Source: Auanema rhodensis | Taxonomy: Eukaryota > Animalia > Nematoda | Reading direction: 5' to 3' | Assembly (NCBI GenBank): GCA_964057225.1 | Contig: OZ059895.1 | Location: forward strand, 12,958,001 to 13,022,000 | Length of the DNA: 64,000 nucleotides | Shown: positions 17,604-62,439 of the stretch, piece after piece | Layout of the letters: every line of letters starts with the position of its first letter | How positions within the stretch are numbered: the first letter of the stretch is position 1 | Position numbers and translations under genes: made by a program | Notes under the pieces: model-generated | Seen by the model: the letters and a program-made list of their open reading frames with translations, nothing else | Databases searched by the model: none | What the model was told of the DNA's origin: nothing

Positions 17604-17644
17604 AAGTGGGTTGATTGCGTGTGGTCGTTTTTCATTTTCCTCTA

Positions 17645-18109: not shown

Positions 18110-18114
18110 AGCGT

Positions 18115-18972: not shown

Positions 18973-19051
18973 GACAAACCACCACTTGATACGTGTACAC
19001 TATTGCAAATGAAATCATTTGCATTTTAGGTACATTTACGAGTGGTTGATT

Positions 19052-19699: not shown

Positions 19700-19711
19700 A
19701 GTGCTTGTTCA

Positions 19712-25261: not shown

Positions 25262-25750
25262 GATCTGGCAAGTCAAGCAACGTTGGGCCCGGTTAGTACT
25301 TGGATCGGAGACGGCTTGGGAATCCTGGGTGCCGTAAGCTTTTCAAATTTTTTTAACGATCATACCACGTTGAAAGTACGCAATGCAGCTGATTTTCAAT
25401 TTTATCTCTTCCGTAACAAATGTTTTTAATTTTCCAGCAGTTTTACTTAGATAGCTCAACCCAAGGCATCAAAATATCTTCAATCTTATTTCTATATTAC
25501 AGTTACAAACCAGTAGTTTATGAACCTTCATCTTAACTTTACTGTTTCTATCTATTTCCTATTGAAACAAACATTGTTTTAACACTATACAACTGTGAAA
25601 CCTTTTTTAATTTATTGTATTTGGATCTCATAAGATTTGATATCATCGAGGGATTTAGATGTAACGTAGAAAATTACATAACTAACATGAAATTGGAAAA
25701 AAAACAATAACGAGGATAAGTATGTAAATCATTGAATATCAGGTATTTTC

Positions 25751-25869
25751 GCTTACGACCATACCACGTTGAAAGTACGCCATCCCGTCCGATCTGGCAA
25801 ATCAAGCAACGTTGGGCCCGGTTAGTACTTGGATCGGAGACGGCTTGGGAATCCCGGGTGCCGTAAGCT
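25751..25869 (+). rRNA. 5S rRNA
   Basis: Full 119-nt copy. Confidence 0.95.
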
Positions 25870-26297
25870 TTTCAAATTTTTTTAACAATCATACCACGTT
25901 GAAAGTAAGCAATGCAGCTGATTTTCAATTTTATCTCTTCAGTAACAAATGTTTTTAATTTTCCAGCAGTTTTACTTAGATAGCTCAACCCAAGGCATCA
26001 AAACAACCCAAGGCATCAAAATATCTTCAATCTTATTTCTATATTACAGTTATAAACCAGTAGTTTATGAACCTTCATCTTAACTTTACTGTTTCTATCT
26101 ATTTCCTATTGAAACAAACATTGTTTAAACACTATACAACTGTGAAACCTTTTTTAATTTATTGTATTTGGATCTCATAAGATTTGATATCATCGAGGGA
26201 TTTAGATGTAACGTAGAAAATTACATAACTAACATGAAATTGGAAAAAAAACAATAACGAGGATAAGTATGTAAATCATTGAATATCAGGTATTTTC

Positions 26298-26416
26298 GCT
26301 TACGACCATACCACGTTGAAAGTACGCCATCCCGTCCGATCTGGCAAGTCAAGCAGCGTTGGGCCCGGTTAGTACTTGGATCGGAGACGGCTTGGGAATC
26401 CCGGGTGCCGTAAGCT
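26298..26416 (+). rRNA. 5S rRNA
   Basis: Full 119-nt copy. Confidence 0.95.
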
Positions 26417-27225
26417 TTTCAAATTTTTTTAACGATCATACCACGTTGAAAGTACGCAATGCAGCTGATTTTCAATTTTATCTCTTCCGTAACAAATGTT
26501 TTTAATTTTCCAGCAGTTTTACTTAGATAGCTCAACCCAAGGCATCAAAATATCTTCAATCTTATTTCTATATTACAGTTATAAACCAGTAGTTTATGAA
26601 CCTTCATCTTAACTTTACTGTTTCTATCTATTTCCTATTGAAACAAACATTGTTTTAACACTATACAACTGTGAAACCTTTTTTAATTTATTGTATTTGG
26701 AGCTCATAAGATTTGATATCATCGAGGAAATTAGATGTAACGTAGAAAATTACATAACTAACATGAAATTGGAAAAAAAACAATAACGAGGATAAGTATG
26801 TAAATCATTGAATATCAGATTTTTTCGCTTACGACCATACCACGTTGAAAGTACGCCATGCAGCTGATTTTCAATTTTATCTCTTCCGTAACAAATGTTT
26901 TTAATTTTCCAGCAGTTTTACTTAGATAGCTCAACCCAAGGCATCAAAATATCTTCAATCTTATTTCTATATTACAGTTATAAACCAGTAGTTTATGAAC
27001 CTTCATCTCAACTTTACTGTTTCTATCTATTTCCTATTGAAACAAACATTGTTTAAACACTATACAACTGTGAAACCTTTTTTAATTTATTGTATTTGGA
27101 TCTCATAAGATTTGATATCATCGAGGGATTTAGATGTAACGTAGAAAATTACAAAACTAACATGAAATTGGAAAAAAAACAATAACGAGGATAAGTATGT
27201 AAATCATTGAATATCAGGTATTTTC

Positions 27226-27344
27226 GCTTACGACCATACCACGTTGAAAGTACGCCATCCCGTCCGATCTGGCAAGTCAAGCAACGTTGGGCCCGGTTAG
27301 TACTTGGATCGGAGACGGCTTGGGAATCCCGGGTGCCGTAAGCT
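27226..27344 (+). rRNA. 5S rRNA
   Basis: Full 119-nt copy. Confidence 0.95.
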
Positions 27345-27754
27345 TTTCAAATTTTTTTAACGATCATACCACGTTGAAAGTACGCAATGCAGCTGATTTT
27401 CAATTTTATCTCTTCCGTAACAAATGTTTTTAATTTTCCAGCATTTTTACTTAGATAGCTCAACCCAAGGCATCAAAATATCTTCAATCTTATTTCTATA
27501 TTACAGTTACAAACCAGTAGTTTATGAACCTTCATCTTAACTTTACTGTTTCTATCTATTTCCTATTGAAACAAACATTGTTTTAACACTATACAACTGT
27601 GAAACCTTTTTTAATTTATTGTATTTGGATCTCATAAGATTTGATATCATCGAGGGATTTAGATGTAACGTAGAAAATTACATAACTAACATGAAATTGG
27701 AAAAAAAACAATAACGAGGATAAGTATGTAAATCATTGAATATCAGGTATTTTC

Positions 27755-27873
27755 GCTTACGACCATACCACGTTGAAAGTACGCCATCCCGTCCGATCTG
27801 GCAAGTCAAGCAGCGTTGGGCCCGGTTAGTACTTGGATCGGAGACGGCTTGGGAATCCCGGGTGCCGTAAGCT
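27755..27873 (+). rRNA. 5S rRNA
   Basis: Full 119-nt copy. Confidence 0.95.
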
Positions 27874-28283
27874 TTTCAAATTTTTTTAACGATCATACCA
27901 CGTTGAAAGTACGCAATGCAGCTGATTTTCAATTTTATCTCTTCCGTAACAAATGTTTTTAATTTTCCAGCAGTTTTACTTAGATAACTCAACCCAAGGC
28001 ATCAAAATATCTTCAATCTTATTTCTATATAACAGTTATAAACCAGTAGTTTATGAACCTTCATCTTAACTTTACTGTTTCTATCTATTTCCTATTGAAA
28101 CAAACATTGTTTAAACACTATACAACTGTGAAACCTTTTTTAATTTATTGTATTTGGATCTCATAAGATTTGATATCATCGAGGGATTTAGATGTAACGT
28201 AGAAAATTACAAAACTAACATGAAATTGGAAAAAAAACAATAACGAGGATAAGTATGTAAATCATTGAATATCAGGTATTTTC

Positions 28284-28402
28284 GCTTACGACCATACCAC
28301 GTTGAAAGTACGCCATCCCGTCCGATCTGGCAAGTCAAGCAACGTTTTGCCCGGTTAGTACTTGGATCGGAGACGGCTTGGGAATCCCGGGTGCCGTAAG
28401 CT
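28284..28402 (+). rRNA. 5S rRNA (GG64-65TT variant)
   Basis: Full-length copy with GTTTTGCCC instead of GTTGGGCCC. Confidence 0.9.
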
Positions 28403-28812
28403 TTTCAAATTTTTTTAACGATCATACCACGTTGAAAGTACGCAATGCAGCTGATTTTCAATTTTATCTCTTCCGTAACAAATGTTTTTAATTTTCCAGC
28501 AGTTTTACTTAGATAGCTCAACCCAAGGCATCAAAATATCTTCAATCTTATTTCTATATTACAGTTACAAACCAGTAGTTTATGAACCTTCATCTTAACT
28601 TTACTGTTTCTATCTATTTCCTATTGAAACAAACATTGTTTTAACACTATACAACTGTGAAACCTTTTTTAATTTATTGTATTTGGATCTCATAAGATTT
28701 GATATCATCGAGGGATTTAGATGTAACGTAGAAAATTACAAAACTAACATGAAATTGGAAAAAAAACAATAACGAGGATAAGTATGTAAATCATTGAATA
28801 TCAGGTATTTTC

Positions 28813-28931
28813 GCTTACGACCATACCACGTTGAAAGTACGCCATCCCGTCCGATCTGGCAAGTCAAGCAACGTTGGGCCCGGTTAGTACTTGGATCGGA
28901 GACGGCTTGGGAATCCCGGGTGCCGTAAGCT
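28813..28931 (+). rRNA. 5S rRNA
   Basis: Full 119-nt copy. Confidence 0.95.
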
Positions 28932-29341
28932 TTTCAAATTTTTTTAACGATCATACCACGTTGAAAGTACGCAATGCAGCTGATTTTCAATTTTATCTCT
29001 TCCGTAACAAATGTTTTTAATTTTCCAGCAGTTTTACTTAGATAGCTCAACCCAAGGCATCAAAATATCTTCAATCTTATTTCTATATTACAGTTACAAA
29101 CCAGTAGTTTATGAACCTTCATCTTAACTTTACTGTTTCTATCTATTTCCTATTGAAACAAACATTGTTTTAACACTATACAACTGTGAAACCTTTTTTA
29201 ATTTATTGTATTTGGATCTCATAAGATTTGATATCATCGAGGGATTTAGATGTAACGTAGAAAATTACATAACTAACATGAAATTGGAAAAAAAACAATA
29301 ACGAGGATAAGTATGTAAATCATTGAATATCAGGTATTTTC

Positions 29342-29460
29342 GCTTACGACCATACCACGTTGAAAGTACGCCATCCCGTCCGATCTGGCAAGTCAAGCAA
29401 CGTTGGGCCCGGTTAGTACTTGGATCGGAGACGGCTTGGGAATCCCGGGTGCCGTAAGCT
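29342..29460 (+). rRNA. 5S rRNA
   Basis: Full 119-nt copy. Confidence 0.95.
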
Positions 29461-29888
29461 TTTCAAATTTTTTTAACAATCATACCACGTTGAAAGTAAG
29501 CAATGCAGCTGATTTTCAATTTTATCTCTTCAGTAACAAATGTTTTTAATTTTCCAGCAGTTTTACTTAGATAGCTCAACCCAAGGCATCAAAACAACCC
29601 AAGGCATCAAAATATCTTCAATCTTATTTCTATATTACAGTTATAAACCAGTAGTTTATGAACCTTCATCTTAACTTTACTGTTTCTATCTATTTCCTAT
29701 TGAAACAAACATTGTTTAAACACTATACAACTGTGAAACCTTTTTTAATTTATTGTATTTGGATCTCATAAGATTTGATATCATCGAGGGATTTAGATGT
29801 AACGTAGAAAATTACATAACTAACATGAAATTGGAAAAAAAACAATAACGAGGATAAGTATGTAAATCATTGAATATCAGGTATTTTC

Positions 29889-30007
29889 GCTTACGACCAT
29901 ACCACGTTGAAAGTACGCCATCCCGTCCGATCTGGCAAGTCAAGCAACGTTGGGCCCGGTTAGTACTTGGATCGGAGACGGCTTGGGAATCCCGGGTGCC
30001 GTAAGCT
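29889..30007 (+). rRNA. 5S rRNA
   Basis: Full 119-nt copy. Confidence 0.95.
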
Positions 30008-30417
30008 TTTCAAATTTTTTTAACAATCATACCACGTTGAAAGTACGCAATGCAGCTGATTTTCAATTTTATCTCTTCCGTAACAAATGTTTTTAATTTT
30101 CCAGCAGTTTTACTTAGATAGCTCAACCCAAGGCATCAAAATATCTTCAATCTTCTTTCTATATTACAGTTATAAACCAGTAGTTTATGAACCTTCATCT
30201 TAACTTTACTGTTTCTATCTATTTCCTATTGAAACAAACATTGTTTTAACACTATACAACTGTGAAACCTTTTTTAATTTATTGTATTTGGATCTCATAA
30301 GATTTGATATCATCGAGGGATTTAGATGTAACGTAGAAAATTACAAAACTAACATGAAATTGGAAAAAAAACAATAACGAGGATAAGTATGTAAATCATT
30401 GAATATCAGGTATTTTC

Positions 30418-30536
30418 GCTTACGACCATACCACGTTGAAAGTACGCCATCCCGTCCGATCTGGCAAGTCAAGCAACGTTGGGCCCGGTTAGTACTTGGA
30501 TCGGAGACGGCTTGGGAATCCCGGGTGCCGTAAGCT
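30418..30536 (+). rRNA. 5S rRNA
   Basis: Full 119-nt copy. Confidence 0.95.
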
Positions 30537-30946
30537 TTTCAAATTTTTTTAACGATCATACCACGTTGAAAGTACGCAATGCAGCTGATTTTCAATTTTA
30601 TCTCTTCCGTAACAAATGTTTTTAATTTTCCAGCAGTTTTACTTAGATAGCTCAACCCAAGGCATCAAAATATCTTCAATCTTATTTCTATATTACAGTT
30701 ACAAACCAGTAGTTTATGAACCTTCATCTTAACTTTACTGTTTCTATCTATTTCCTATTGAAACAAACATTGTTTTAACACTATACAACTGTGAAACCTT
30801 TTTTAATTTATTGTATTTGGATCTCATAAGATTTGATATCATCGAGGGATTTAGATGTAACGTAGAAAATTACATAACTAACATGAAATTGGAAAAAAAA
30901 CAATAACGAGGATAAGTATGTAAATCATTGAATATCAGGTATTTTC

Positions 30947-31065
30947 GCTTACGACCATACCACGTTGAAAGTACGCCATCCCGTCCGATCTGGCAAGTCA
31001 AGCAACGTTGGGCCCGGTTAGTACTTGGATCGGAGACGGCTTGGGAATCCCGGGTGCCGTAAGCT
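30947..31065 (+). rRNA. 5S rRNA
   Basis: Full 119-nt copy. Confidence 0.95.
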
Positions 31066-31493
31066 TTTCAAATTTTTTTAACAATCATACCACGTTGAAA
31101 GTAAGCAATGCAGCTGATTTTCAATTTTATCTCTTCAGTAACAAATGTTTTTAATTTTCCAGCAGTTTTACTTAGATAGCTCAACCCAAGGCATCAAAAC
31201 AACCCAAGGCATCAAAATATCTTCAATCTTATTTCTATATTACAGTTATAAACCAGTAGTTTATGAACCTTCATCTTAACTTTACTGTTTCTATCTATTT
31301 CCTATTGAAACAAACATTGTTTTAACACTATACAACTGTGAAACCTTTTTTAATTTATTGTATTTGGAGCTCATAAGATTTGATATCATCGAGGAAATTA
31401 GATGTAACGTAGAAAATTACAAAACTAACATGAAATTGGAAAAAAAACAATAACGAGGATAAGTATGTAAATCATTGAATATCAGGTATTTTC

Positions 31494-31612
31494 GCTTACG
31501 ACCATACCACGTTGAAAGTACGCCATCCCGTCCGATCTGGCAAGTCAAGCAGCGTTGGGCCCGGTTAGTACTTGGATCGGAGACGGCTTGGGAATCCCGG
31601 GTGCCGTAAGCT
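31494..31612 (+). rRNA. 5S rRNA
   Basis: Full 119-nt copy. Confidence 0.95.
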
Positions 31613-32421
31613 TTTCAAATTTTTTTAACGATCATACCACGTTGAAAGTACGCAATGCAGCTGATTTTCAATTTTATCTCTTCCGTAACAAATGTTTTTA
31701 ATTTTCCAGCAGTTTTACTTAGATAGCTCAACCCAAGGCATCAAAATATCTTCAATCTTATTTCTATATTACAGTTATAAACCAGTAGTTTATGAACCTT
31801 CATCTTAACTTTACTGTTTCTATCTATTTCCTATTGAAACAAACATTGTTTTAACACTATACAACTGTGAAACCTTTTTTAATTTATTGTATTTGGAGCT
31901 CATAAGATTTGATATCATCGAGGAATTTAGATGTAACGTAGAAAATTACATAACTAACATGAAATTGGAAAAAAAACAATAACGAGGATAAGTATGTAAA
32001 TCATTGAATATCAGATTTTTTCGCTTACGACCATACCACGTTGAAAGTACGCCATGCAGCTGATTTTCAATTTTATCTCTTCCGTAACAAATGTTTTTAA
32101 TTTTCCAGCAGTTTTACTTAGATAGCTCAACCCAAGGCATCTAAATATCTTCAACCTTATTTCTATATTACAGTTATAAACCAGTAGTTTATGAACCTTC
32201 ATCTTAACTTTACTGTTTCTATCTATTTCCTATTAAAACAAACATTGTTTAAACACTATACAACTGTGAAACCTTTTTTAATTTATTGTATTTGGATTTC
32301 ATAAGATTTGATATCATCGAGGAATTTAGATGTAACGTAGAAAATTACATAACTAACATGAAATTGGAAAAAAAACAATAACGAGGATAAGTATGTAAAT
32401 CATTGAATATCAGATATTTTC

Positions 32422-32540
32422 GCTTACGACCATACCACGTTGAAAGTACGCCATCCCGTCCGATCTGGCAAGTCAAGCAACGTTGGGCCCGGTTAGTACT
32501 TGGATCGGAGACGGCTTGGGAATCCCGGGTGCCGTAAGCT
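32422..32540 (+). rRNA. 5S rRNA
   Basis: Full 119-nt copy. Confidence 0.95.
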
Positions 32541-33766
32541 TTTCAAATTTTTTTAACGATCATACCACGTTGAAAGTAAGCAATGCAGCTGATTTTCAAT
32601 TTTATCTCTTCAGTAACAAATGTTTTTAATTTTCCAGCAGTTTTACTTAGATAGCTCAACCCAAGGCATCAAAACAACCCAAGGCATCACAATATCTTCA
32701 ATCTTATTTCTATATTACAGTTATAAACCAGTAGTTTATGAACCTTCATCTTAAATTTACTGTTTCTATCTATTTCCTATTAAAACAAACATTGTTTAAA
32801 CACTATACAACTGTGAAACCTTTTTTAATTTATTGTATTTGGAGCTCATAAGATTTGATATCATCGAGGAGTTTAGATGTAACGTAGAAAATTACATAAC
32901 TAACATGAAATTGGAAAAAAAACAATAACGAGGATAAGTATGTAAATCATTGAATATCAGATTTTTTCGCTTACGACCATACCACGTTGAAAGTACGCCA
33001 TGCAGCTGATTTTCAATTTTATCTCTTCCGTAACAAATGTTTTTAATTTTCCAGCAGTTTTACTTAGATAGCTCAACCCAAGGCATCAAAATATCTTCAA
33101 TCTTATTTCTATATTACAGTTATAAACCAGTAGTTTATGAACCTTCATCTCAACTTTACTGTTTCTATCTATTTCCTATTAAAACAAACATTGTTCAAAC
33201 ACTATACAACTGTGAAACCTTTTTTAATTTATTGTATTTGGAGCTCATAAGATTTGATATCATCGAGGAGTTTAGATGTAACGTAGAAAATTACATAACT
33301 AACATGAAATTGGAAAAAAAACAATAACGAGAATAAGTATGTAAATCATTGAATATCAGATTTTTTCGCTTACGACCATACCACGTTGAAAGTACGCCAT
33401 GCAGCTGATTTTCAATTTTATCTCTTCCGTAACAAATGTTTTTAATTTTCCAGCAGTTTTACTTAGATAGCTCAACCCAAGGCATCAAAATATCTTCAAT
33501 CTTATTTCTACATTACAGTTATAAACCAGTAGTTTATGAACCTTCATCTCAACTTTACTGTTTCTATCTATTTCCTAATGAAACAAACATTGTTTAAACA
33601 CTATACAACTGTGAAACCTTTTTTAATTTATTGTATTTGGATCTCATAAGATTTGATATCATCGAGGGATTTAGATGTAACGTAGAAAATTACAAAACTA
33701 ACATGAAATTGGAAAAAAAACAATAACGAGGATAAGTATGTAAATCATTGAATATCAGGTATTTTC

Positions 33767-33885
33767 GCTTACGACCATACCACGTTGAAAGTACGCCATC
33801 CCGTCCGATCTGGCAAGTCAAGCAACGTTGGGCCCGGTTAGTACTTGGATCGGAGACGGCTTGGGAATCCCGGGTGCCGTAAGCT
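33767..33885 (+). rRNA. 5S rRNA
   Basis: Full 119-nt copy. Confidence 0.95.
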
Positions 33886-34694
33886 TTTCAAATTTTTTTA
33901 ACGATCATACCACGTTGAAAGTACGCAATGCAGCTGATTTTCAATTTTATCTCTTCCGTAACAAATGTTTTTAATTTTCCAGCAGTTTTACTTAGATAGC
34001 TCAACCCAAGGCATCAAAATATCTTCAATCTTATTTCTATATTACAGTTACAAACCAGTAGTTTATGAACCTTCATCTTAACTTTACTGTTTCTATCTAT
34101 TTCCTATTAAAACAAACATTGTTCAAACACTATACAACTGTGAAACCTTTTTTAATTTATTGTATTTGGAGCTCATAAGATTTGATATCATCGAGGAGTT
34201 TAGATGTAACGTAGAAAATTACATAACTAACATGAAATTGGAAAAAAAACAATAACGAGAATAAGTATGTAAATCATTGAATATCAGATTTTTTCGCTTA
34301 CGACCATACCACGTTGAAAGTACGCCATGCAGCTGATTTTCAATTTTATCTCTTCCGTAACAAATGTTTTTAATTTTCCAGCAGTTTTACTTAGATAGCT
34401 CAACCCAAGGCATCAAAATATCTTCAATCTTCTTTCTATATTACAGTTATAAACCAGTAGTTTATGAACCTTCATCTCAACTTTACTGTTTCTATCTATT
34501 TCCTAATGAAACAAACATTGTTTAAACACTATACAACTGTGAAACCTTTTTTAATTTATTGTATTTGGATCTCATAAGATTTGATATCATCGAGGGATTT
34601 AGATGTAACGTAGAAAATTACAAAACTAACATGAAATTGGAAAAAAAACAATAACGAGGATAAGTATGTAAATCATTGAATATCAGGTATTTTC

Positions 34695-34813
34695 GCTTAC
34701 GACCATACCACGTTGAAAGTACGCCATCCCGTCCGATCTGGCAAGTCAAGCAACGTTGGGCCCGGTTAGTACTTGGATCGGAGACGGCTTGGGAATCCCG
34801 GGTGCCGTAAGCT
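34695..34813 (+). rRNA. 5S rRNA
   Basis: Full 119-nt copy. Confidence 0.95.
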
Positions 34814-35222
34814 TTTCAAATTTTTTTAACGATCATACCACGTTGAAAGTACGCAATGCAGCTGATTTTCAATTTTATCTCTTCCGTAACAAATGTTTTT
34901 AATTTTCCAGCAGTTTTACTTAGATAGCTCAACCCAAGGCATCAAAATATCTTCAATCTTATTTCTATATTACAGTTACAAACCAGTAGTTTATGAACCT
35001 TCATCTTAACTTTACTGTTTCTATCTATTTCCTATTGAAACAAACATTGTTTTAACACTATACAACTGTGAAACCTTTTTCAATTTATTGTATTTGGATC
35101 TCATAAGATTTGATATCATCGAGGGATTTAGATGTAACGTAGAAAATCACATAACTAACATGAAATTGGAAAAAAACAATAACGAGGATAAGTATGTAAA
35201 TCATTGAATATCAGGTATTTTC

Positions 35223-35341
35223 GCTTACGACCATACCACGTTGAAAGTACGCCATCCCGTCCGATCTGGCAAGTCAAGCAACGTTGGGCCCGGTTAGTAC
35301 TTGGATCGGAGACGGCTTGGGAATCCCGGGTGCCGTAAGCT
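35223..35341 (+). rRNA. 5S rRNA
   Basis: Full 119-nt copy. Confidence 0.95.
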
Positions 35342-35663
35342 TTTCAAATTTTTTTAACGATCATACCACGTTGAAAGTACGCCATGCAGCTGATTTTCAA
35401 TTTCATCTCTTCCGTAACAAATGTTTTTAATTTTCCAGCAGTTTTACTTAGATAGCTCAACCCAAGGCATCAAAATATCTTCAATCTTATTTCTATATTA
35501 CAGTTATAAACCAGTAGTTTATGAACCTTCATCTTAACTTTACTGTTTCTATCTATTTCCTATTGAAACAAACATTGTTTAAACACTATACAACTGTGAA
35601 ACCTTTTTTAATTTATTGTATTTGGATCTCATAAGATTTGATATCATCGAGGGATTTAGATGT

Positions 35664-36080
35664 TGTTACATACATATCTCAAAGGAAAGCAGCTGACCAT
35701 GGCAGCTGCTATTATTAAACTAATGCAAATAGTTTTTAAGCAATTCTGAGAATATTCTAGATGCACTTTTTATAAGCTTTGTAACAATTTGTGTAAACTG
35801 AGTAGGAGTTGTATGGATATATAAACCTGAGTCCTCAAGACTCAGGCATCTCATTATCTCATTATCTTACTTTCTCTTTATCTTCTTTATATTCTCTTTC
35901 TTAACTCTAGCTTTAATCTTTGTATAATTATATTATAATGCGAACAATAAACCTTTATATATTTCATCTCTTGTTTCTTATTTCACCTTACATTACACAC
36001 ATATATTTAAAATCATACTCATCTTCTCATAGTCTGTTTGGATCTCTCAACTTGGAACCATTGGGAATCTAAATGGAACG
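35664..36080 (+). repeat. 5' LTR (417 bp)
   Basis: Begins TGT where the spacer match ends. TATATAAA at ~35817, AATAAA at ~35946, and the PBS follows immediately. Confidence 0.82.
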
Positions 36081-36098
36081 TGGAGGTTCCGCCGAGAT
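36081..36098 (+). promoter_or_regulatory. Primer-binding site, probably tRNA-Gln
   Basis: TGGAGGTTCCGCCGAGAT is complementary to the eukaryotic tRNA-Gln 3' end (…AUCUCGGUGGAACCUCCA), allowing one G-U pair. Confidence 0.8.
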
Positions 36099-37347: not shown

Positions 37348-40300
37348 ATGCTGCCCAATACTGGTCCAAAACCTCCGCTGGACCCTGCTGCCACTTCAAA
37401 TATTATAAGAAGAAAAAGACAACCGCCCGCAACATATTCTCCCCCCTCTGCAAAACAAGCGAAGTTAAGCATTAAAACAAAGTCAATGGTAATACATACC
37501 CCAAGACATCGCGGCATTCAAAAACAATTCACCAATCCCAAATCACATGAAAAAACGAAGAAACAAAAAACAGACATAGTCGAAAGAAACACCTTAGAAA
37601 AGAAAATTATCCCAAACATTAAACCTATTCCTAAAAACATAGCAAGCAAAGGGAACCCTCAAAACCCCCCAACCAACACCATACCAAATACAATCAACCC
37701 AATCAATCCTTTAATAGCCACCCCTAGAAGAAGCAATACACCAACCACACAAAAATCACCTACGCCCGCACTTTCTTCAACCACACCCGCAGTAAGCTCA
37801 TCCCCACCTCTACGAATCTCACCTTCATCCATTGATCATTCTACATCTGGGCATTCTCTATCTCCGTCTCTTCCATCGCAAACTAATCAAGCAAATACTT
37901 TTGTTGCAGAAAACAAGAGAATTAACCCAAGAATGGACCCAATGGACGAAGGCGCACCACTTACGCAAACCTCGGGAAGGGCACCTGTTCCAACACCTAC
38001 AATCATCCCTCAACCAGCAGCGATTCCGTCCGCCATACGCGATATAAAAGCTCCACGCTACGATGGAAAAACACCATTCAACCGCTATCTACTATACCTA
38101 GATGAACACTTCAACGCTACAAGAACAACTATGCCCGAACGTCTTCAAAGCATACAATTATTGCTAGAAGATGATCGAGCAAGAGAAGCGTACAGAAAAC
38201 TCACAACCGAAGATAAGCGACTTGGATGGGACCATGTCAAGAAGCGACTCTCAGAAATGATCACACCGAAAAAACAGAGAGAACGAGCAATGCACCGCCT
38301 ACATGGCTTGAAACAGTTACCAACGGAATCGGTACAAAGCTTTGCAACAAGATGTTCTAACGAAGCCTACTCGGCTATGGACATGAACAACGAAAGTGAG
38401 CTTAACATGCTCCGATCCACTTTCACCTGGGGACTAAGACCCGAAATAAGCGAACATGTTAGCCGTCTAGACCCACCAAACTTTGAGGAAGCTTACGAAA
38501 TGGCCTTACGAGAAGAACTCTTTATACAAAATAGACCACCATCGTTCGTCAACAATATGGAGAAGTCGTTCAACAACCTCAACATTCGAGACTCAAAGGA
38601 CAACAATCAATACCAGAGAAACGAATCTAAGGAATTCAAAGGAACCAAACCGATGTATAATGGCAATGGCAAACCACACAACCGATATCCGGACAGATAC
38701 AACAACCAATATCGGCCTCATCAACACCAATACAGGAACCATAACTCACGATTCTCTCAAAATAAGGGATCAAGACAAAACTACTTCAACAGATCACGGA
38801 ACAGAAGCCAAGAAAGACCATACTATCGAAACCGCGACCAAAACTATAGCGGACACAACAACCGGCGACAATCAAATAATCACGAACAATACCCCTCTCA
38901 ATACAATCGAAGCCAATACAACAATTATAGAAGTCGCCCGCGCAGCACCTCCAATGGACCGGAACGGTATAGAGAACGCACACAGAGCCCAGGAGTACGT
39001 TTTCAAGTCAACAACGTCACGGAAAACGAAGTACCGAACAACAAAAGAAAATCAACACCATTCCTACCCCTCTTTATCACAATTATCGCACTCATTATAA
39101 ACACATGCAGTGCAGAAACAACGTACCAGTTATGCACAGGAAACAGAGGAGGAATATATGTCGAGCCGCCATCTCCAACAGCTTGCCGATCCATCGCACC
39201 AACTAATAACCATATCCAGAAGACAACAGCAGAATTGTTCATCCAAAACCTACAACCAAAAGAATGGGAAGCATGGAAATGTGCAATTGAAACTTACCAA
39301 CTCTGCATTCACGACGTTTTCTTCATCAGAGAAACTAATGTCTCACTAGCAAAAGTTTCACCAACAACACTGCAAGAATGTTCGTCAGCTATTAAAGAAA
39401 GAATATTCAACGGTACCAACCTTCAAAGAGAAGCACCAGGACTCTATGGAACTCCATTCCCAGAGACAACCATTACTAATGGTATATGGAAACAGGAATG
39501 CGAACAACGTACCAGATTCATAGCTGAACGAGGACACATGACCAGCCTACAAGACAATACAGTACTCTCAGATATATTCATAAACGACAACGGATGCACC
39601 AGTGACAAAGGACAATGCCTAACCAACAACGCTCTCATCATATGGACCCCACCATCAGAAAAACATAGTTGCTCGTACACTTCATTAGGCTCTCACGAAG
39701 TTTTTATATCAGAAGACACCATATTGATTCCCGGAATTCAAAGTGCTTTTATTCTAAACAATAAAACACCGGAAAAAGAAGCCTCCTCATGCTTACAAAA
39801 AGATATATTTACTACAAATAGTGGAACTCTAATCTCCTTCAACTCAACCTCAAGCTTAGGACGATCAAGAAGACACGCAATCACGGAATACCCTAAAGGA
39901 TTCTTGACAGTTCATCAATACCCCTCGCTAAGATATTCAGCCAGCAAAACCGGAACTATTCTACTATATACAACCTATATTCAACGGAAAAGACTTGACA
40001 TCCATTACAATCTCAATAACATAACAAATATGTTACCTAAGTATATCGCAATCTTCAAATACCTAGGTATAAATTTTGATGTTATCAAAAATCGTCTTAT
40101 ATGGCACAAATATGAAGACGTCAACATAGCCATTCTACACGCCCTAGGAGAAGCAGAAATAAGAGAAGCAACAAAAATCGCGATCGATAATCTATCGTAT
40201 AAGGAACTTACGCATAAACTTAGCAAACGGATCACAATTAAGGATTTTAAGAAGATACTACCAACCAAAACAGGAGACTACTATGAAATCGCGAAAGAAA

Positions 40301-43300
40301 TTGCTTACTCACTTGCGGAAATACCTACTACGTTAGCTACAGGAGAAACAACACCATCTTTAGAAGAATACTTATATCAACTCATGCCACCAAGAAAACC
40401 AAGACTCACCAAGACACGAAACGATTTAGAACTGTACGAACAACTAGCACAAGCAAAAATTATCCTGAACGCAATAAATAATCCGAAGAAGCTACATTCA
40501 AAAGAAGAATACGAAGCAGAAATGAAGAAATGGATCAAATATGAAAAAGAACTGAACTTACCACCATTACAACTGCCAAACTACACAGTTATCTTCGATG
40601 GCGACGATATATTCTACGGCTTCCGGAAAAGAAATCCTACAAATTATAGCATTACACAAGAGGATAGTGAAAAATTTTATAATCATTATCTACCCCTTAT
40701 CAGTACTCCCGGAACACGACCTTTTGCAACCACAATTAGAAGCACTTCGACCCCCCTACAAACTACTACTACAACCACTACCACGACCCCTAAGCCTACA
40801 ACCATAAGGAACGTCATCACTTCGACAATCACACCCAAAACACATATATCCACAACAACTAGACCCAAACCAACAATACCCACGTCTTCATCAACTACTA
40901 CTACTACTACCACTACTACTACTACTACTTCTACTACTGCTAGACTCAGATCAACAACAACCACAACACCTACAACAACCACAACTATATTCACCACTCA
41001 TCGACCAACACAATCATTCTCCACCCCCCAATCTACATTCAATATTACTACAAACCCAATCACAATCACCTCAAGCCAGGAATACAATAGGAAAGAATCA
41101 CTCACCAAGTCACCGCCTCCAAGAACTACAAAAAGATCTATCACTACCACTCGCAGCACACCTGAAGAAATATCATCACATATTGGTAAGAAAGATCACG
41201 TAGACTACCTTAAAGCTAAGAACGATATCGTCCAAAAATGGAATGAACATCTTCATCAACAAGAAACGCAATCTCATCTACAATATGCCACTACCAATCT
41301 GGAAGATGATATCATACGTACGTTCACAACAAACAGAAACAACATCTGCCACGTACAAAATAAACAACTACTTACCTGGTGGGCTATTCTTCAAATAAAT
41401 CCTACTATAGGGATGCGTACAATGCTACGACGACAGGATATATCTGCAAGATTCATAAATGATAAACTAATTTATGTAATGCCATGCACACCAATTCAAA
41501 TTACAAAAACATACCGCGATCACAAAGTCAACAGCACGTGTTTTCTGGAAACCCCAGTCGAAACGGAACATCACGGCCAACTGTTCATCCTACCAGGTAC
41601 AAGAGACCTCACACCGATGGCACATGCCATACCATGCGGATTCACAATCAAGGATCCCTGGAAAGAAAACGATCAATGGACTAATAATAACCAATCAATA
41701 AATGTAACATCACCAGCATACATCGACGAGTTAGGATCAATCAACCTAGAACATATCAAGTTTAATGGAAGCAACATTTTCAACAACCTAACAGAATCAA
41801 CGTTTCCTATGGCACTAGCAATATCATATGGATCCAGCTTAGCAACGCTACAGGCTACTTTACCAGGAAGAATAAAACCTGTAATCAAACAAAGATTAAT
41901 TCCTAACATGAACCCTGTTACCCTAACAGCAGGAGCAGCCAGCAGCTTACTACTCAGCTACGAACATACAAAAGAAGCTATAACTTGGAAAATGTTTGAC
42001 TTTCTGTCACCAATATGGGAAAAGATTCAAACCTGGACACTACGCGTACTTGCTATCATTGGATCAATCATCATAACAATTGGCATAATCACACTCGCCA
42101 CCTGGATAATAAAAATATACGCATGTAGTTCAAGGATACCCATCAACAATGTCAAATGGGAAGCAGAATACTTACAACCACTATCAACTGAGAACACAAG
42201 AACAGAAACATCTCATCCTTCTCCGTCCGCTCCATACGTCGACAACCATCACAACAGCTGTCAACTCACATTGTATGATCCTTCAGCACCAATTCCTGAA
42301 CACATTTATGAAGCTTATTTCCCTACAAGCATGAAGAAAGAAAACATAAACTACATAGGAGGATCACAATTACCGTTTGTCCCAATTTCAATCCACAATC
42401 ACATCTTTAAGGCACTATGGGACACGGGAGCATCAGCATCATACATGCGAGAATCCACCTTCAAACAACTGCCCGCTGCAACGATGGTACTAAAACAAAC
42501 AACAGCGATAGTCGCGAATAAATCTAAATTCTCATTTATGGGATACACAAGGATCCTCATAACAATAGGAACAACAGAAACAGAACACAAATTTTATGTA
42601 GCAGAAGATAACTACTGTCCAGCACCAGTGTTACTTGGAATAGACTTCATGGAAGCATTACATCAACAAGGAATTTACACCTCACTTCGACCGCTGGATA
42701 AAACAATTGTTATCGGCACAACACATGTTCCACTAGCACGAGAAACATCTCCGTGGGAACACCAGACCACGAAAGCATATGTGGTTAGCTTAGAAAACAA
42801 AACGCTGAGACCAGGAGAAACAAGAACGCTCACGCTAGAAGTACACGATCCAGAAAGCTATGAACAGGCGTTTCTAGATTGTAAGAAACCAGGCAACAAA
42901 CTCTCTTTCACGCCTACTATATTTACGCCAACTGGATACGGAGTACAAATTTACGCGACGAATATATGCAAACAGCCACTCGAAATTCAAATGAATCAAG
43001 AAATAGGGATAGCAGAAGCGATACCAAAGGACAACCAAGAAAAATACGAAGGACAATACATACCTCCGGAAGCTCGATGGGAAGAGCAACTGCCATATTT
43101 TCCAGACAATTTCATCAATGAGCTTGACCTTTCAGAAGCCTGCTTCTCACAAATCGAACAACAGCAACTGAAAGAAATAATTTTACTACATAAACAAGCG
43201 TTTCTCAACGAAGATAGAAATATCGGACTCTTCCTAGGACCAATTGAACACTCCATTCCAATCATGCCAGGAAAAACACCATCATTCAAAATTACTTATC

Positions 43301-44595
43301 GTATACCACTCTCCCAACAAGAAGAAGTGGAGAAACAAATAGAAGAAATGCTACAACAAAGAATCATTGAACCATCAAACTCAATGACAACTAGTCCAGT
43401 AATTTTGGTGAAGAAGAAAGACAAAACTTACAGATTTGTAACGGACTTTCGAGCTTTGAATGCAATCACTCAGAAACAAGTATATGTTATATCAAACATA
43501 CAGGACATCCTAGATTTGGCCGCTGGAGCAAGGATCTTCAGCAACTTTGATTTAGTATCTGGATTTTTCCAAATACCTCTTAAGAAAGAAGATCGTCATC
43601 TTACAGCTTTCACAACAACAAGTGGAACTTACCAATATTGTCGAATGCCGATGGGATTATGTGGATCACCCCATACTTTTCAAAACGCAGTACGATACCT
43701 GCAATCAATGGTTAAATGCAAGCTATTCGTATATCTAGATGATTTACTGTTAATCTCTGAATCTACGACAGCACATTTAAAAGATATTGAAGAAGTTTTG
43801 GAAGCAGTAACTCAAATAGGATTCAAAATAAAACTGAAGAAATGCGCATTCGCAAGAAAGGAAGTAAAATTTCTAGGATACATAGTTGGACAAGAAGGAA
43901 TTAAACCGGACCCACATAAAATCAAGGCAATACAAGATTATCCCCAACCAAAATCAACAACAGGAGTAAGAGCTTTCATGGGAGTAGTAAACTACTTCAG
44001 AAGGTTCATAAAGAACGCTGCAGGAATAGCAACACCACTCTACAACCTCACTCGGAAAGACACTCCGTTCAAATGGACAGAAGAAGAAGAAATTGCTTTT
44101 AATACTTTGAAGAAAACATTGACTCAAGCACCTGTGTTACAAGCACCAATCCCGAAACGACCATATGTTATTGAAAGTGACGGAAGTATGATAGCAGTTG
44201 GCGCTGTACTACTTCAAGCGAAAGACGATCAAGAACCATTACATCCAATAGCTTTTGCTAGTCGGAAACTCAACAAAGCTGAAAGGAATTATCCACCAAT
44301 AGAAGTAGAAGCATTAGCTCTTACATTCGCCGTCAACCAATTTCGCACCTACATACTAGGAACAGCAACCAAAATTATCACGGACCATAGACCACTCACT
44401 AGTTTAATGACTAGAAAGGATTTAATAGGTCGTTTAGCAAAATTTCAAATTGTTTTACAAGAATACGATATTGAAATTATCTACAGACCAGGAAAATTAA
44501 ACAGTGTATGTGACGCATTATCACGATATTTTGAAGATGAAATCAACGAAGCAAAACCACCAGCTACGTCAACCGACTTTAGTTTAATCAAATAA
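37348..44595 (+). CDS. Gag-Env-PR-RT-RNaseH polyprotein
   Basis: Capsid-like region (RYDGK...LKQLPTESVQSF...GLRPEI) followed by an R/N/Q-rich NC-like tract. Then a signal peptide at ~39058-39114, a Cys-rich ectodomain, RSRR at 39862, a Thr-rich tract at ~40730-41160 and a TM at ~42046-42120. Protease DTGA at 42421, RT YLDD at ~43732, RNase H ESDGS...TDHRPL...DALSR. The first ATG (37348) follows a TTACAG acceptor. Confidence 0.92.
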   Translation: MLPNTGPKPPLDPAATSNIIRRKRQPPATYSPPSAKQAKLSIKTKSMVIHTPRHRGIQKQFTNPKSHEKTKKQKTDIVERNTLEKKIIPNIKPIPKNIASKGNPQNPPTNTIPNTINPINPLIATPRRSNTPTTQKSPTPALSSTTPAVSSSPPLRISPSSIDHSTSGHSLSPSLPSQTNQANTFVAENKRINPRMDPMDEGAPLTQTSGRAPVPTPTIIPQPAAIPSAIRDIKAPRYDGKTPFNRYLLYLDEHFNATRTTMPERLQSIQLLLEDDRAREAYRKLTTEDKRLGWDHVKKRLSEMITPKKQRERAMHRLHGLKQLPTESVQSFATRCSNEAYSAMDMNNESELNMLRSTFTWGLRPEISEHVSRLDPPNFEEAYEMALREELFIQNRPPSFVNNMEKSFNNLNIRDSKDNNQYQRNESKEFKGTKPMYNGNGKPHNRYPDRYNNQYRPHQHQYRNHNSRFSQNKGSRQNYFNRSRNRSQERPYYRNRDQNYSGHNNRRQSNNHEQYPSQYNRSQYNNYRSRPRSTSNGPERYRERTQSPGVRFQVNNVTENEVPNNKRKSTPFLPLFITIIALIINTCSAETTYQLCTGNRGGIYVEPPSPTACRSIAPTNNHIQKTTAELFIQNLQPKEWEAWKCAIETYQLCIHDVFFIRETNVSLAKVSPTTLQECSSAIKERIFNGTNLQREAPGLYGTPFPETTITNGIWKQECEQRTRFIAERGHMTSLQDNTVLSDIFINDNGCTSDKGQCLTNNALIIWTPPSEKHSCSYTSLGSHEVFISEDTILIPGIQSAFILNNKTPEKEASSCLQKDIFTTNSGTLISFNSTSSLGRSRRHAITEYPKGFLTVHQYPSLRYSASKTGTILLYTTYIQRKRLDIHYNLNNITNMLPKYIAIFKYLGINFDVIKNRLIWHKYEDVNIAILHALGEAEIREATKIAIDNLSYKELTHKLSKRITIKDFKKILPTKTGDYYEIAKEIAYSLAEIPTTLATGETTPSLEEYLYQLMPPRKPRLTKTRNDLELYEQLAQAKIILNAINNPKKLHSKEEYEAEMKKWIKYEKELNLPPLQLPNYTVIFDGDDIFYGFRKRNPTNYSITQEDSEKFYNHYLPLISTPGTRPFATTIRSTSTPLQTTTTTTTTTPKPTTIRNVITSTITPKTHISTTTRPKPTIPTSSSTTTTTTTTTTTTSTTARLRSTTTTTPTTTTTIFTTHRPTQSFSTPQSTFNITTNPITITSSQEYNRKESLTKSPPPRTTKRSITTTRSTPEEISSHIGKKDHVDYLKAKNDIVQKWNEHLHQQETQSHLQYATTNLEDDIIRTFTTNRNNICHVQNKQLLTWWAILQINPTIGMRTMLRRQDISARFINDKLIYVMPCTPIQITKTYRDHKVNSTCFLETPVETEHHGQLFILPGTRDLTPMAHAIPCGFTIKDPWKENDQWTNNNQSINVTSPAYIDELGSINLEHIKFNGSNIFNNLTESTFPMALAISYGSSLATLQATLPGRIKPVIKQRLIPNMNPVTLTAGAASSLLLSYEHTKEAITWKMFDFLSPIWEKIQTWTLRVLAIIGSIIITIGIITLATWIIKIYACSSRIPINNVKWEAEYLQPLSTENTRTETSHPSPSAPYVDNHHNSCQLTLYDPSAPIPEHIYEAYFPTSMKKENINYIGGSQLPFVPISIHNHIFKALWDTGASASYMRESTFKQLPAATMVLKQTTAIVANKSKFSFMGYTRILITIGTTETEHKFYVAEDNYCPAPVLLGIDFMEALHQQGIYTSLRPLDKTIVIGTTHVPLARETSPWEHQTTKAYVVSLENKTLRPGETRTLTLEVHDPESYEQAFLDCKKPGNKLSFTPTIFTPTGYGVQIYATNICKQPLEIQMNQEIGIAEAIPKDNQEKYEGQYIPPEARWEEQLPYFPDNFINELDLSEACFSQIEQQQLKEIILLHKQAFLNEDRNIGLFLGPIEHSIPIMPGKTPSFKITYRIPLSQQEEVEKQIEEMLQQRIIEPSNSMTTSPVILVKKKDKTYRFVTDFRALNAITQKQVYVISNIQDILDLAAGARIFSNFDLVSGFFQIPLKKEDRHLTAFTTTSGTYQYCRMPMGLCGSPHTFQNAVRYLQSMVKCKLFVYLDDLLLISESTTAHLKDIEEVLEAVTQIGFKIKLKKCAFARKEVKFLGYIVGQEGIKPDPHKIKAIQDYPQPKSTTGVRAFMGVVNYFRRFIKNAAGIATPLYNLTRKDTPFKWTEEEEIAFNTLKKTLTQAPVLQAPIPKRPYVIESDGSMIAVGAVLLQAKDDQEPLHPIAFASRKLNKAERNYPPIEVEALALTFAVNQFRTYILGTATKIITDHRPLTSLMTRKDLIGRLAKFQIVLQEYDIEIIYRPGKLNSVCDALSRYFEDEINEAKPPATSTDFSLIK

Positions 44596-44916
44596 AATAA
44601 GAAACTAGAATTCGAAAGCTTTTTTTATAAAAGATTCCACGGAATAAGGTGGAACGTAATTCTTTTTATACAAATTCATTCACTTTTTACATTCTATAGT
44701 TTGCTATATAAACCCGTAGAAAACACACTAAGGGAGATCTTCTATCATGTAGTTTTAGACTTTAACTTTACTTGTTTGTAGTTTATAACATTTCCTATTG
44801 TAGTTTTCACTATATAATAAAACAGTTGCTAATTTATCTACTTGTTGAACAATGAAACCCTTGCACAAAATCCATCTGAAACCCTAGTCGGAACCCTAGG
44901 GCAATCAAATGGAACG
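44555..44916 (+). repeat. LTR-like segment from a related but different element (5' boundary approximate)
   Basis: Contains TATATAAACC (~44705) and AATAAA (~44816). It shares the terminal motif GGAACC...GGG.AATC.AAATGGAACG with the 5' LTR, but the interior does not align by eye. Confidence 0.65.
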
Positions 44917-46082
44917 TGTTTTTTTTCCAATTTCATGTTAGTTATGTAATTTTCTACGTTACATCTAAATCCCTCGATGATATCAAATCTTATGAGATCC
45001 AAATACAATAATTTAAAAAAGGTTTCACAGTTGTATAGTGTTTAAACAATGTTTGTTTCAATAGGAAATAGATAGAAACAGTAATGTTAAGATGAAGGTT
45101 CATAAACTACTGGTTTATAACTGTAATATAGAAATAAGATTGAAGATATTTTGATGCCTTGGGTTGAGCTATCTAAGTAAAACTGCTGGAAAATTAAAAA
45201 CATTTGTTACGGAAGAGATAAAATTGAAAATCAGCTGCATGGCGTACTTTCAACGTGGTATGGTCGTAAGCGAAAATATCTGATATTCAATGATTTACAT
45301 ACTTATCCTCGTTATTGTTTTTTTTTCCAATTTCATGTTAGTTATGTAATTTTCTACGTTACATCTAAATTCCTCGATGATATCAAATCTTATGAGCTCC
45401 AAATACAATAAATTAAAAAAGGTTTCACAGTTGTATAGTGTTAAAACAATGTTTGTTTCAATAGGAAATAGATAGAAACAGTAAAGTTAAGATGAAGGTT
45501 CATAAACTACTGGTTTATAACTGTAATATAGAAATAAGATTGAAGATATTTTGATGCCTTGGGTTGAGCTATCTAAGTAAAACTGCTGGAAAATTAAAAA
45601 CATTTGTTACGGAAGAGATAAAATTGAAAATCAGCTGCATGGCGTACTTTCAACGTGGTATGGTCGTAAGCGAAAATATCTGATATTCAATGATTTACAT
45701 ACTTATCCTCGTTATTGTTTTTTTTTTCCAATTTCATGTTAGTTATGTAATTTTCTACGTTACATCTAAATCCCTCGATGATATCAAATCGTATGAGATC
45801 CAAATACAATAAATTAAAAAAGGTTTCACAGTTGTATAGTGTTTAAACAATGTTTGTTTCAATAGGAAATAGATAGAAACAGTAAAGTTAAGATGAAGGT
45901 TCATAAACTACTGGTTTATAACTGTAATATAGAAATAAGATTGAAGATATTTTGATGCCTTGGGTTGAGCTATCTAAGTAAAACTGCTGGAAAATTAAAA
46001 ACATTTGTTACGGAAGAGATAAAATTGAAAATCAGCTGCATTGCGTACTTTCAACGTGGTATGATCGTTAAAAAATTTGAAA

Positions 46083-46201
46083 AGCTTACGGCACCCGGGA
46101 TTCCCAAGCCGTCTCCGATCCAAGTACTAACCGGGCCCAACGTTGCTTGACTTGCCAGATCGGACGGGATGGCGTACTTTCAACGTGGTATGATCGTAAG
46201 C
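46083..46201 (-). rRNA. 5S rRNA
   Basis: Full copy on - (C9T variant). Confidence 0.93.
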
Positions 46202-46610
46202 GAAAATACCTGATATTCAATGATTTACATACTTATCCTCGTTATTGTTTTTTTTCCAATTTCATGTTAGTTATGTAATTTTCTACGTTACATCTAAATC
46301 CCTCGATGATATCAAATCTTATGAGATCCAAATACAATAATTTAAAAAAGGTTTCACAGTTGTATAGTGTTTAAACAATGTTTGTTTCAATAGGAAATAG
46401 ATAGAAACAGTAATGTTAAGATGAAGGTTCATAAACTACTGGTTTATAACTGTAATATAGAAATAAGATTGAAGATATTTTGATGCCTTGGGTTGAGCTA
46501 TCTAAGTAAAACTGCTGGAAAATTAAAAACATTTGTTACGGAAGAGATAAAATTGAAAATCAGCTGCATTGCGTACTTTCAACGTGGTATGATCGTTAAA
46601 AAATTTGAAA

Positions 46611-46729
46611 AGCTTACGGCACCCGGGATTCCCAAGCCGTCTCCGATCCAAGTACTAACCGGGCCCAACGTTGCTTGACTTGCCAGATCGGACGGGATGG
46701 CGTACTTTCAACGTGGTATGATCGTAAGC
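46611..46729 (-). rRNA. 5S rRNA
   Basis: Full copy on - (C9T variant). Confidence 0.93.
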
Positions 46730-47138
46730 GAAAATACCTGATATTCAATGATTTACATACTTATCCTCGTTATTGTTTTTTTTCCAATTTCATGTTAGTT
46801 ATGTAATTTTCTACGTTACATCTAAATCCCTCGATGATATCAAATCTTATGAGATCCAAATACAATAATTTAAAAAAGGTTTCACAGTTGTATAGTGTTT
46901 AAACAATGTTTGTTTCAATAGGAAATAGATAGAAACAGTAATGTTAAGATGAAGGTTCATAAACTACTGGTTTATAACTGTAATATAGAAATAAGATTGA
47001 AGATATTTTGATGCCTTGGGTTGAGCTATCTAAGTAAAACTGCTGGAAAATTAAAAACATTTGTTACGGAAGAGATAAAATTGAAAATCAGCTGCATTGC
47101 GTACTTTCAACGTGGTATGATCGTTAAAAAATTTGAAA

Positions 47139-47257
47139 AGCTTACGGCACCCGGGATTCCCAAGCCGTCTCCGATCCAAGTACTAACCGGGCCCAACGTT
47201 GCTTGACTTGCCAGATCGGACGGGATGGCGTACTTTCAACGTGGTATGATCGTAAGC
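47139..47257 (-). rRNA. 5S rRNA
   Basis: Full copy on - (C9T variant). Confidence 0.93.
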
Positions 47258-48066
47258 GAAAATACCTGATATTCAATGATTTACATACTTATCCTCGTTA
47301 TTGTTTTTTTTCCAATTTCATGTTAGTTATGTAATTTTCTACGTTACATCTAAATCCCTCGATGATATCAAATCTTATGAGATCCAAATACAATAATTTA
47401 AAAAAGGTTTCACAGTTGTATAGTGTTTAAACAATGTTTGTTTCAATAGGAAATAGATAGAAACAGTAATGTTAAGATGAAGGTTCATAAACTACTGGTT
47501 TATAACTGTAATATAGAAATAAGATTGAAGATATTTTGATGCCTTGGGTTGAGCTATCTAAGTAAAACTGCTGGAAAATTAAAAACATTTGTTACGGAAG
47601 AGATAAAATTGAAAATCAGCTGCATGGCGTACTTTCAACGTGGTATGGTCGTAAGCGAAAATATCTGATATTCAATGATTTACATACTTATCCTCGTTAT
47701 TGTTTTTTTTCCAATTTCATGTTAGTTATGTAATTTTCTACGTTACATCTAAATTCCTCGATGATATCAAATCTTATGAGCTCCAAATACAATAAATTAA
47801 AAAAGGTTTCACAGTTGTATAGTGTTAAAACAATGTTTGTTTCAATAGGAAATAGATAGAAACAGTAAAGTTAAGATGAAGGTTCATAAACTACTGGTTT
47901 ATAACTGTAATATAGAAATAAGATTGAAGATATTTTGATGCCTTGGGTTGAGCTATCTAAGTAAAACTGCTGGAAAATTAAAAACATTTGTTACGGAAGA
48001 GATAAAATTGAAAATCAGCTGCATTGCGTACTTTCAACGTGGTATGATCGTTAAAAAAATTTGAAA

Positions 48067-48119
48067 AGCTTACGGCACCCGGGATTCCCAAGCCGTCTCC
48101 GATCCAAGTACTAACCGGG
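48067..48119 (-). pseudogene. 5S gene nt 67-119, interrupted by the MULE (nt 1-75 at 52258-52332)
   Basis: CTAACCGGG is duplicated at 48111-48119 and 52258-52266. Confidence 0.93.
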
Positions 48120-62430: not shown

Positions 62431-62439
62431 TTCCCGGCA

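Follow-up and report, generated by a model that had tools for sequence, protein, structure and literature searches.

How does a retroelement that carries its envelope protein (Env) in the middle of a polyprotein make capsids, spikes, and packaged enzymes? The question is raised by a reading frame in the window, by which we mean the whole 64,000-nt stretch of Auanema rhodensis contig OZ059895.1 that was analysed. The frame is uninterrupted on the plus strand from 37348 to 44595 (2415 aa counted from the ATG, with no internal stop), and its parts are, in order, Gag, an internal signal, an ectodomain, a transmembrane (TM) helix, protease (PR), reverse transcriptase (RT), and RNase H (Table 1). 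This layout is already known, but how it yields all three kinds of product is not explained in the available text of the main description (PMC13524379). We put at about three in four the probability that the window holds a 3'-truncated copy of a nematode Ty3/gypsy GAG-ENV-POL element whose polyprotein is predicted to cross the ER membrane twice and is likely cut by host enzymes and by its own protease. What we add is a specific processing model and a spliced antisense RNA.

Table 1. Features of the element and its flanks (window coordinates; aa numbers refer to the ORF)
Feature	Position	Strand	Basis
5S rDNA tandem array (399/529/547-nt units), left of element	25262..35663	+	repeat analysis
5' LTR, starts TG; TATA-like 35818, AATAAA 35946	35664..36080	+	sequence; contigs of other runs
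Primer-binding site, tRNA-Gln type, abutting LTR	36081..36098	+	complementarity to tRNA-Gln 3' end
Single ORF Gag-signal-Env-TM-PR-RT-RNase H, without integrase	37348..44595	+	ORF, Pfam, hydropathy
Gag	37348..39006	+	Retrotrans_gag aa 275-364 (Pfam PF03732)
Candidate viral-protease site (aa 554), upstream of internal signal	39007..39018	+	motif enrichment, cleavage inferred
Internal signal sequence h/c-region (aa 572-589, predicted)	39061..39114	+	hydropathy; in 21/24 homologs
Class III (gB/chuvirus-like) ectodomain, predicted	39115..42027	+	Pfam, AlphaFold2 model, Foldseek, VIA-align
Furin-like RSRR (aa 839)	39862-39873	+	within ectodomain, sequence
Inserted helical domain	about aa 860-1125 of ORF	+	AlphaFold2 model, homolog comparison
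Thr-rich low-confidence stretch	about aa 1130-1280 of ORF	+	AlphaFold2 model
Transmembrane helix, predicted stop-transfer	42034..42117	+	hydropathy; TM conserved in homologs
Candidate viral-protease site (aa 1599), just after TM	42142..42153	+	motif enrichment, cleavage inferred
Candidate viral-protease site (aa 1667), PR N-terminus	42346..42357	+	motif enrichment, cleavage inferred
Aspartyl protease (DTG), reverse transcriptase (YLDD), RNase H	42370..44466	+	Pfam, motifs
14 GT-AG introns of antisense RNA over env and pol	39250..43576	-	contig joints
Fragment of different LTR-like sequence, 352 nt; TATA-like 44705, AATAAA 44816	44565..44916	+	
5S rDNA tandem array, right of element, opposite orientation	44917..48119	-	repeat analysis

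Domain layout and relatives

The preliminary description of this locus proposed one frame with Env between Gag and Pol, and this is borne out by the ORF, by the order of the Pfam matches, and by the only two stretches above the hydropathy cut (about aa 569-591 and aa 1560-1594). Pfam places the aspartyl protease at aa 1675-1772, RVT_1 at 2021-2180, and RNase H at 2243-2373. These Pol domains are of the Ty3/gypsy type (PF13975, PF00078, and PF17917/PF17919), and the RT-RNase H neighbours of the window are gypsy-type. In the window, Pfam found neither the Pao peptidase and DUF1759 domains that mark BEL/Pao elements nor an env after integrase. The C-terminal part of Gag is basic and rich in R, N, Q, and Y, and a sequence scan of Gag found no CCHC knuckle (its sole cysteine is aa 336). 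The furin-like RSRR reported earlier is present in the ectodomain, but to call the ectodomain Cys-rich was an overstatement (14 Cys in about 970 aa).

A resemblance of the ectodomain to class III fusogens was first spotted by eye, and structure searches uphold it. We used AlphaFold2 to model aa 592-1561 as a monomer from an alignment of 86 rows (the window protein and 85 of the 152 proteins described below). The model (mean pLDDT 72, pTM 0.41) combines a beta-rich N-terminal region and a C-terminal beta domain with a central helix of 69 residues. Its top Foldseek match in the PDB is HSV gB (E = 1e-10), and its top matches in a viral library are rhabdo-like, nyavirus, and chu-like glycoproteins (E = 1e-14 to 1e-9). 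VIA-align of the model against herpes gB gave a Z of 12.7 with an rmsd of 4.2 over 384 aligned residues, and a Foldseek-free search of 48,161 chains gave 10 rows with Z ≥ 5, every one of them a class III fusogen. Also, Pfam matches Glycoprotein_B (PF00606) at aa 1308-1386 with E = 4e-5, which is under the curated cut-off, and PF24664 is above its cut-off in the two closest relatives. The predicted ectodomain resembles the class III (herpes gB-like) fold, and in its modelled fold it is like the glycoproteins of herpesviruses, nyamiviruses, chuviruses, and rhabdo-like viruses. It differs from class III viral glycoproteins in sequence (8-18% identity), in sitting inside a polyprotein, and in having a large insert at the furin loop.

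This insert of about 440 aa (a helical domain followed by a Thr-rich stretch) splits the two gB-like halves of the ectodomain. Its length in relatives ranges from 29 to 522 aa, and the helical part is common to the window and its two closest relatives. The helical domain had no usable Atlas match, and when folded from a single sequence it reached a pLDDT of 41. In a structure search with the whole model, the only rows matching the insert were death domains (Z of 3.5-4.0).

Relatives with the same order exist, which rules out a one-off capture of env. An HMMER search with env gave 257 matches, the best 150 of which were taken up, and the set examined comprised 152 proteins. Among the matches listed, at least 44 of the 152 have env before pol in one chain (a few of these calls rest on short pol matches), 4 have pol before env, and 104 have env only. 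Many of these homologs are gene predictions, and a predicted single protein is not always a single genomic ORF. A query with the C-terminal part of Env found two proteins among 2167 candidates, both from Auanema and both with env before pol, and with RT-RNase H as the query, env was upstream of RT in 22 of 37 matches. When 19 long env homologs were scanned with Pfam, the Ty3/gypsy polyproteins were distinct from five BEL/Pao proteins, which have Pao peptidase/DUF1759 domains and env last. As the env-before-pol order recurs in many relatives, the insertion of env is a trait of the lineage.

We built a tree of 48 rows by a quick method (the window and 47 proteins with full RT and RNase H; others were dropped). 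The window falls in a clade of 29 rows (SH-aLRT 100), 28 of which have env before RT; the rows were found partly via env, so the sampling leans on env, and the published authors' own sequences are absent. Named members of the clade are rhabditid and strongylid nematodes (Auanema, Heterorhabditis, Caenorhabditis, Diploscapter, Oesophagostomum, and Ancylostoma). Its sole env-less row (P0168, Caenorhabditis brenneri, 1417 aa) reflects either a loss of env or a partial gene model. The closest relatives found, P0001 and P0002, are from Auanema sp. JU1783 and have the same domain order as the window. P0001, with which the window pairs in the tree, is 47% identical to it in Env and 78% in RT-RNase H, and P0002 is 42% identical in Env. 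P0001 reaches into the zinc-binding domain of integrase, whereas the window copy has no integrase.

The position of env between gag and pol is not novel. Sacco and colleagues reportedly described a continuous gag-env-pro-pol ORF in 2022 and named the clade NERV. In the available text of Chary and Hayashi (eLife RP108449, PMC13524379), elements of Nematoda, Bryozoa, and Platyhelminthes have a gB-type ENV and the order GAG-ENV-POL, and Sacco et al. 2022 (J Gen Virol 103:1739) are credited for the nematode elements. The window element is a new, defective member of this published nematode group. Going by the same text, it shares with the nematode GAG-ENV-POL errantiviruses the Ty3/gypsy Pol, the HSV/gB-type env in mid-element, and a tRNA-Gln primer-binding site abutting the LTR (as in at least 8 of the 36 nematode elements in supplement 1 of PMC13524379). 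It differs from them in lacking integrase and a matching 3' LTR and in having the ectodomain insert. In our quick tree, from which the published papers' own sequences are absent, its RT groups with nematode env-before-pol elements. The strings "polyprotein," "antisense," "splic," and "rDNA" do not occur in the main text of PMC13524379, so the processing model and the antisense RNA appear not to be discussed in that text. Atlas virus and other nematode belpaoviruses also encode one polyprotein, but in the order Gag-Pol-Env, with a BEL/Pao Pol and a class II phlebovirus-like fusogen at the end (available text of PMC9094657). That layout needs only one return across the membrane, whereas the window element is predicted to cross twice.

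Proposed processing of the polyprotein

The preliminary description proposed a two-pass, flavivirus-like topology, and we compared 28 homologs that have both Env halves and Pol. A TM between env and pol is found in 28 of 28, the ectodomain is free of hydrophobic stretches in 27 of 28, and the internal signal is present in 21 of the 24 that have upstream sequence. (A furin-type site near the variable insert is found in 16 of 28.) This hydrophobic pattern supports the predicted in-then-out topology. As we picture it, Gag would be made in the cytosol, the internal signal would open translocation, and Env would enter the lumen. The TM would stop transfer and leave PR-RT-RNase H (and integrase, where there is one) hanging on the cytosolic tail of Env. 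Signal peptidase would free the N-terminus of Env, and RSRR may be cut by furin.

Signal peptidase cuts after the signal and leaves the hydrophobic signal on the upstream protein, so the C-terminus of Gag would still be anchored by it. Thus, the earlier proposal that signal peptidase separates Gag from Pol fits the topology but would not free Gag from the membrane. We propose that the element's protease ends this anchoring by cutting a [VI]N-x-[VILM] motif about 15 aa upstream of the signal. The protease would also cut just past the TM and ahead of PR. Gag and Pol would then meet on one face of the membrane, beside Env, and would be released there.

The motif was picked after viewing the junctions in 19 close relatives, and we scored it in 35-aa windows; the counts include the window protein, and the related proteins are not independent. 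It is present before the signal in 17 of 28 proteins and absent from 11 (shuffle mean 1.2, maximum 5), present after the TM in 22 of 50 and absent from 28 (shuffle mean 2.4, maximum 8), and present before PR in 17 of 47 and absent from 30 (shuffle mean 3.3, maximum 9). Entire TM-to-PR tails contain it in 34 of 46 proteins (shuffle mean 6.8, maximum 14). The background is 1-4% (27 of 613 ectodomain windows and 5 of 358 RT-RNase H windows). The linker between RNase H and integrase, which is normally cut by Ty3/gypsy proteases, served as a positive control that was not inspected systematically beforehand, and it has the motif in 15 of 37 proteins (shuffle mean 3.3, maximum 9). Before the signal, the motif occurs in none of eight proteins with pol before env or with env last, in some of which the signal is poorly defined. 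The window protein has it at aa 116, 119, 401, and 1923 in addition to aa 554, 1599, and 1667.

Because these motifs lie near the signal and the TM and are enriched over background, the element's protease likely releases both Gag, from the signal anchor, and Pol, from the tail of Env, as judged from sequence patterns. The conserved motifs give three exact candidate positions for protease-dependent release of Gag and Pol. In flaviviruses, NS2B-NS3 frees the capsid from its anchor. By analogy only (the element is not a flavivirus), Gag here would correspond to a capsid tethered by an internal signal and released by the viral protease. We consider it moderately probable that this flavivirus-style double processing operates, with Gag leaving the signal anchor and Pol the Env tail under the control of the element's own protease. 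If true, this would be a route of retroelement assembly unlike orthoretroviral Gag-Pol packaging. The motif also has the same shape as the Gag protease site of foamy virus, given as RAVN/TVTQ in the available text of PMC3798896, and the element is not a spumavirus.

The preliminary description instead had signal peptidase alone part Gag from the rest, with Pol entering particles tied to the Env tail at 1:1:1. The two-pass topology would suit this, and so would the short TM-to-PR tail (median 85 aa); also, a protease that is delayed until budding could let Pol ride on Env first. Nevertheless, the hydrophobic signal would remain on Gag, and relatives conserve protease-like motifs immediately upstream of the signal and immediately downstream of the TM, so we think it rather unlikely that signal peptidase acts alone, and packaging of Pol via Env at 1:1:1 would be one option only. 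Equal synthesis of Gag, Env, and Pol does not account for the excess of Gag that is usual and normally needed, which would favor sense splicing or another RNA-level switch that gives Gag-only or Gag-Pol mRNAs and leaves the full polyprotein as a minor product. Such a switch has a precedent in the nematode gypsy element Cer1 of C. elegans, which uses sense splicing to make a spliced mRNA (CERV) from its long ORF region (available text of PMC10309623), and another point in its favor is that the listing of joints in one comparison stops at 15 of 18 rows. We looked for splicing that skips env, as had been suggested, in contigs from four runs of a single study that are guessed to be RNA, with three DNA runs for contrast. 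No sense gag-to-pol splice is among the joint rows listed for the guessed-RNA contigs, which drop rare forms; a second comparison, listed in full, shows none either. The 14 joints listed, between 39247 and 43577, are all CT..AC and none is GT..AG; a 3282-nt contig from run X11 spans the gag-env border unspliced; and splice-like motifs are few on the plus strand. So, an RNA-level switch seems improbable, and we retain double cleavage by the host's and the element's proteases as the preferred reading.

A spliced antisense RNA

Read on the minus strand, the CT..AC joints are GT-AG introns of an antisense RNA. Eleven are 41-77 nt long and three are 469-1015 nt long. Thirteen of the 14 occur in at least two of the guessed-RNA runs, and none occurs in the three DNA runs. 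A random deletion of such sizes would have CT..AC ends with a chance of 1%, and the donors resemble the consensus.

We considered an antisense protein-coding gene and rejected it: once the 14 introns are removed, no stop-free run exceeds 88 aa, versus 103 aa on the unspliced antisense strand (one exon path, among the joint rows listed). Selection for antisense splice donors is likewise unsupported. Simple synonymous shuffling predicts 16.4 donors where 30 are observed, but if codon-junction dinucleotides are kept, the expectation rises to 24.2 (z = 1.8, rank 31 of 419 motifs) and the enrichment is lost; acceptors were not enriched in the shuffle test. As the joined RNA is non-coding and the donor enrichment is lost, the introns are likely due to cryptic splicing of an antisense transcript on the T-rich strand. 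Read-through, or antisense transcription driven by an LTR, is the most likely origin of the RNA, and its source may be any copy of the family, which is young, apparently multi-copy, and probably transcribed in A. rhodensis. That the RNA is a regulator encoded by the element is doubtful, because the donor enrichment vanished under the stricter control. Similarly, we give little credence to the joint proposal that double protease processing goes together with a multiply spliced antisense RNA by which the family tunes its own expression. As a possible trigger of silencing, the spliced RNA is a concrete candidate. In C. elegans, LTR elements are silenced by antisense siRNAs (available text of PMC7084138). 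Among titles and abstract openings on spliced antisense LTR RNAs in nematodes, we found nothing on the GAG-ENV-POL family.

A broken copy in a 5S rDNA array

The insertion point of the 5' LTR lies 87 nt ahead of the expected start of the repeat unit's 5S gene. Contigs from other runs carry this LTR with other flanks and have loose ends at 35664 and 36080. The first 12 nt of the primer-binding site (36081-36092) have one mismatch to each of two Gln tRNA ends that the available text of PMC13524379 lists for Caenorhabditis elements; the site was judged against these listed ends. The leader from the primer-binding site to the ATG (36099-37347) is AT-rich and unusually long (1.25 kb), and it contains most of the indels listed in comparison with other copies.

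The 3' end is broken. Pfam found no integrase in the window copy, and the frame ends 27 aa past the RNase H end motif, a motif beyond which 13 close relatives extend for 197-1100 aa. At 44564, contigs from 7 of 7 public runs (of 15) continue into other sequence, one of them for about 2.9 kb, and none of the contigs listed bridges this position. In the window, the sequence passes instead into a fragment of a different LTR-like sequence, which supplies the stop codon of the ORF and ends 44 nt upstream of a minus-strand 5S position. We did not find two matching LTRs with a target-site duplication: the ends share only about 28 nt, over which the fragment is 86% like the end of the 5' LTR (local alignment score 184, versus a mean of 158 and a maximum of 189 in 200 shuffles). 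Also, the final 352 nt are found in a separate contig of lower depth with a different upstream flank. Both LTR-like ends (36067-36080 and 44903-44916) finish in ...GGAACG, where CA is usual. The break is most simply read as a deletion or rearrangement that joined two LTR elements within the 5S array, and the junction at 44564 may instead have arisen when the repeats were assembled.

Could the integrase-less form be more than debris, namely a Gag-Env-RT gene that is functional or co-opted by the host? Its 2415 codons are open, and the new stop lies close behind. On the other side, the main contigs of the seven runs leave the window sequence at 44564, the close relatives run on beyond the RNase H motif, the right end consists of part of another LTR-like sequence, and the 5S arrays change direction from one side of the element to the other. 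Where differences from other copies are listed, they are sparse point changes, which explains the open frame without selection. So, we regard such a gene as highly improbable. We also reject a natural integrase-less lineage, given the divergence of 7 of 7 runs at 44564 and the 13 relatives that continue past the motif. The window copy is best read as a truncated member of its family.

A low-depth contig from DNA run X6 skips 5037 nt (37718-42756), a multiple of 3, with CA..TG ends. The skip removes the capsid core, Env, and PR, and it is an internally deleted copy and not a splice.

Both LTR junctions precede a 5S start, by 87 and 44 nt. We reject targeting of 5S upstream regions: two sites show nothing, other copies are otherwise flanked, and three unrelated elements lie in the array. 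Among titles and abstract openings on 5S insertion and on Burro, we found nothing on the GAG-ENV-POL family. The array spans window positions 1-62097 (34 Rfam matches), with units of 399, 529, and 547 nt that mix whole and truncated copies and change orientation across the retroelement. An insert of about 4.1 kb with terminal inverted repeats (48120-52257) lies in a minus-strand 5S gene, and its 176-aa ORF has no Pfam match. A non-repeat insert (62098-64000), whose 180-aa ORF also has no Pfam match, starts inside a 5S gene at about position 64-67, about as the 48120-52257 insert does. Finally, a Maverick/Polinton-like element (8732-25261) is inserted in a 5S gene with a 6-bp duplication at 5S position 41-46. 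Its terminal inverted bases are identical (60 of 60), and it encodes PolB in two ORF pieces, an adenoviral-type protease, an ATPase, and a chromodomain integrase.
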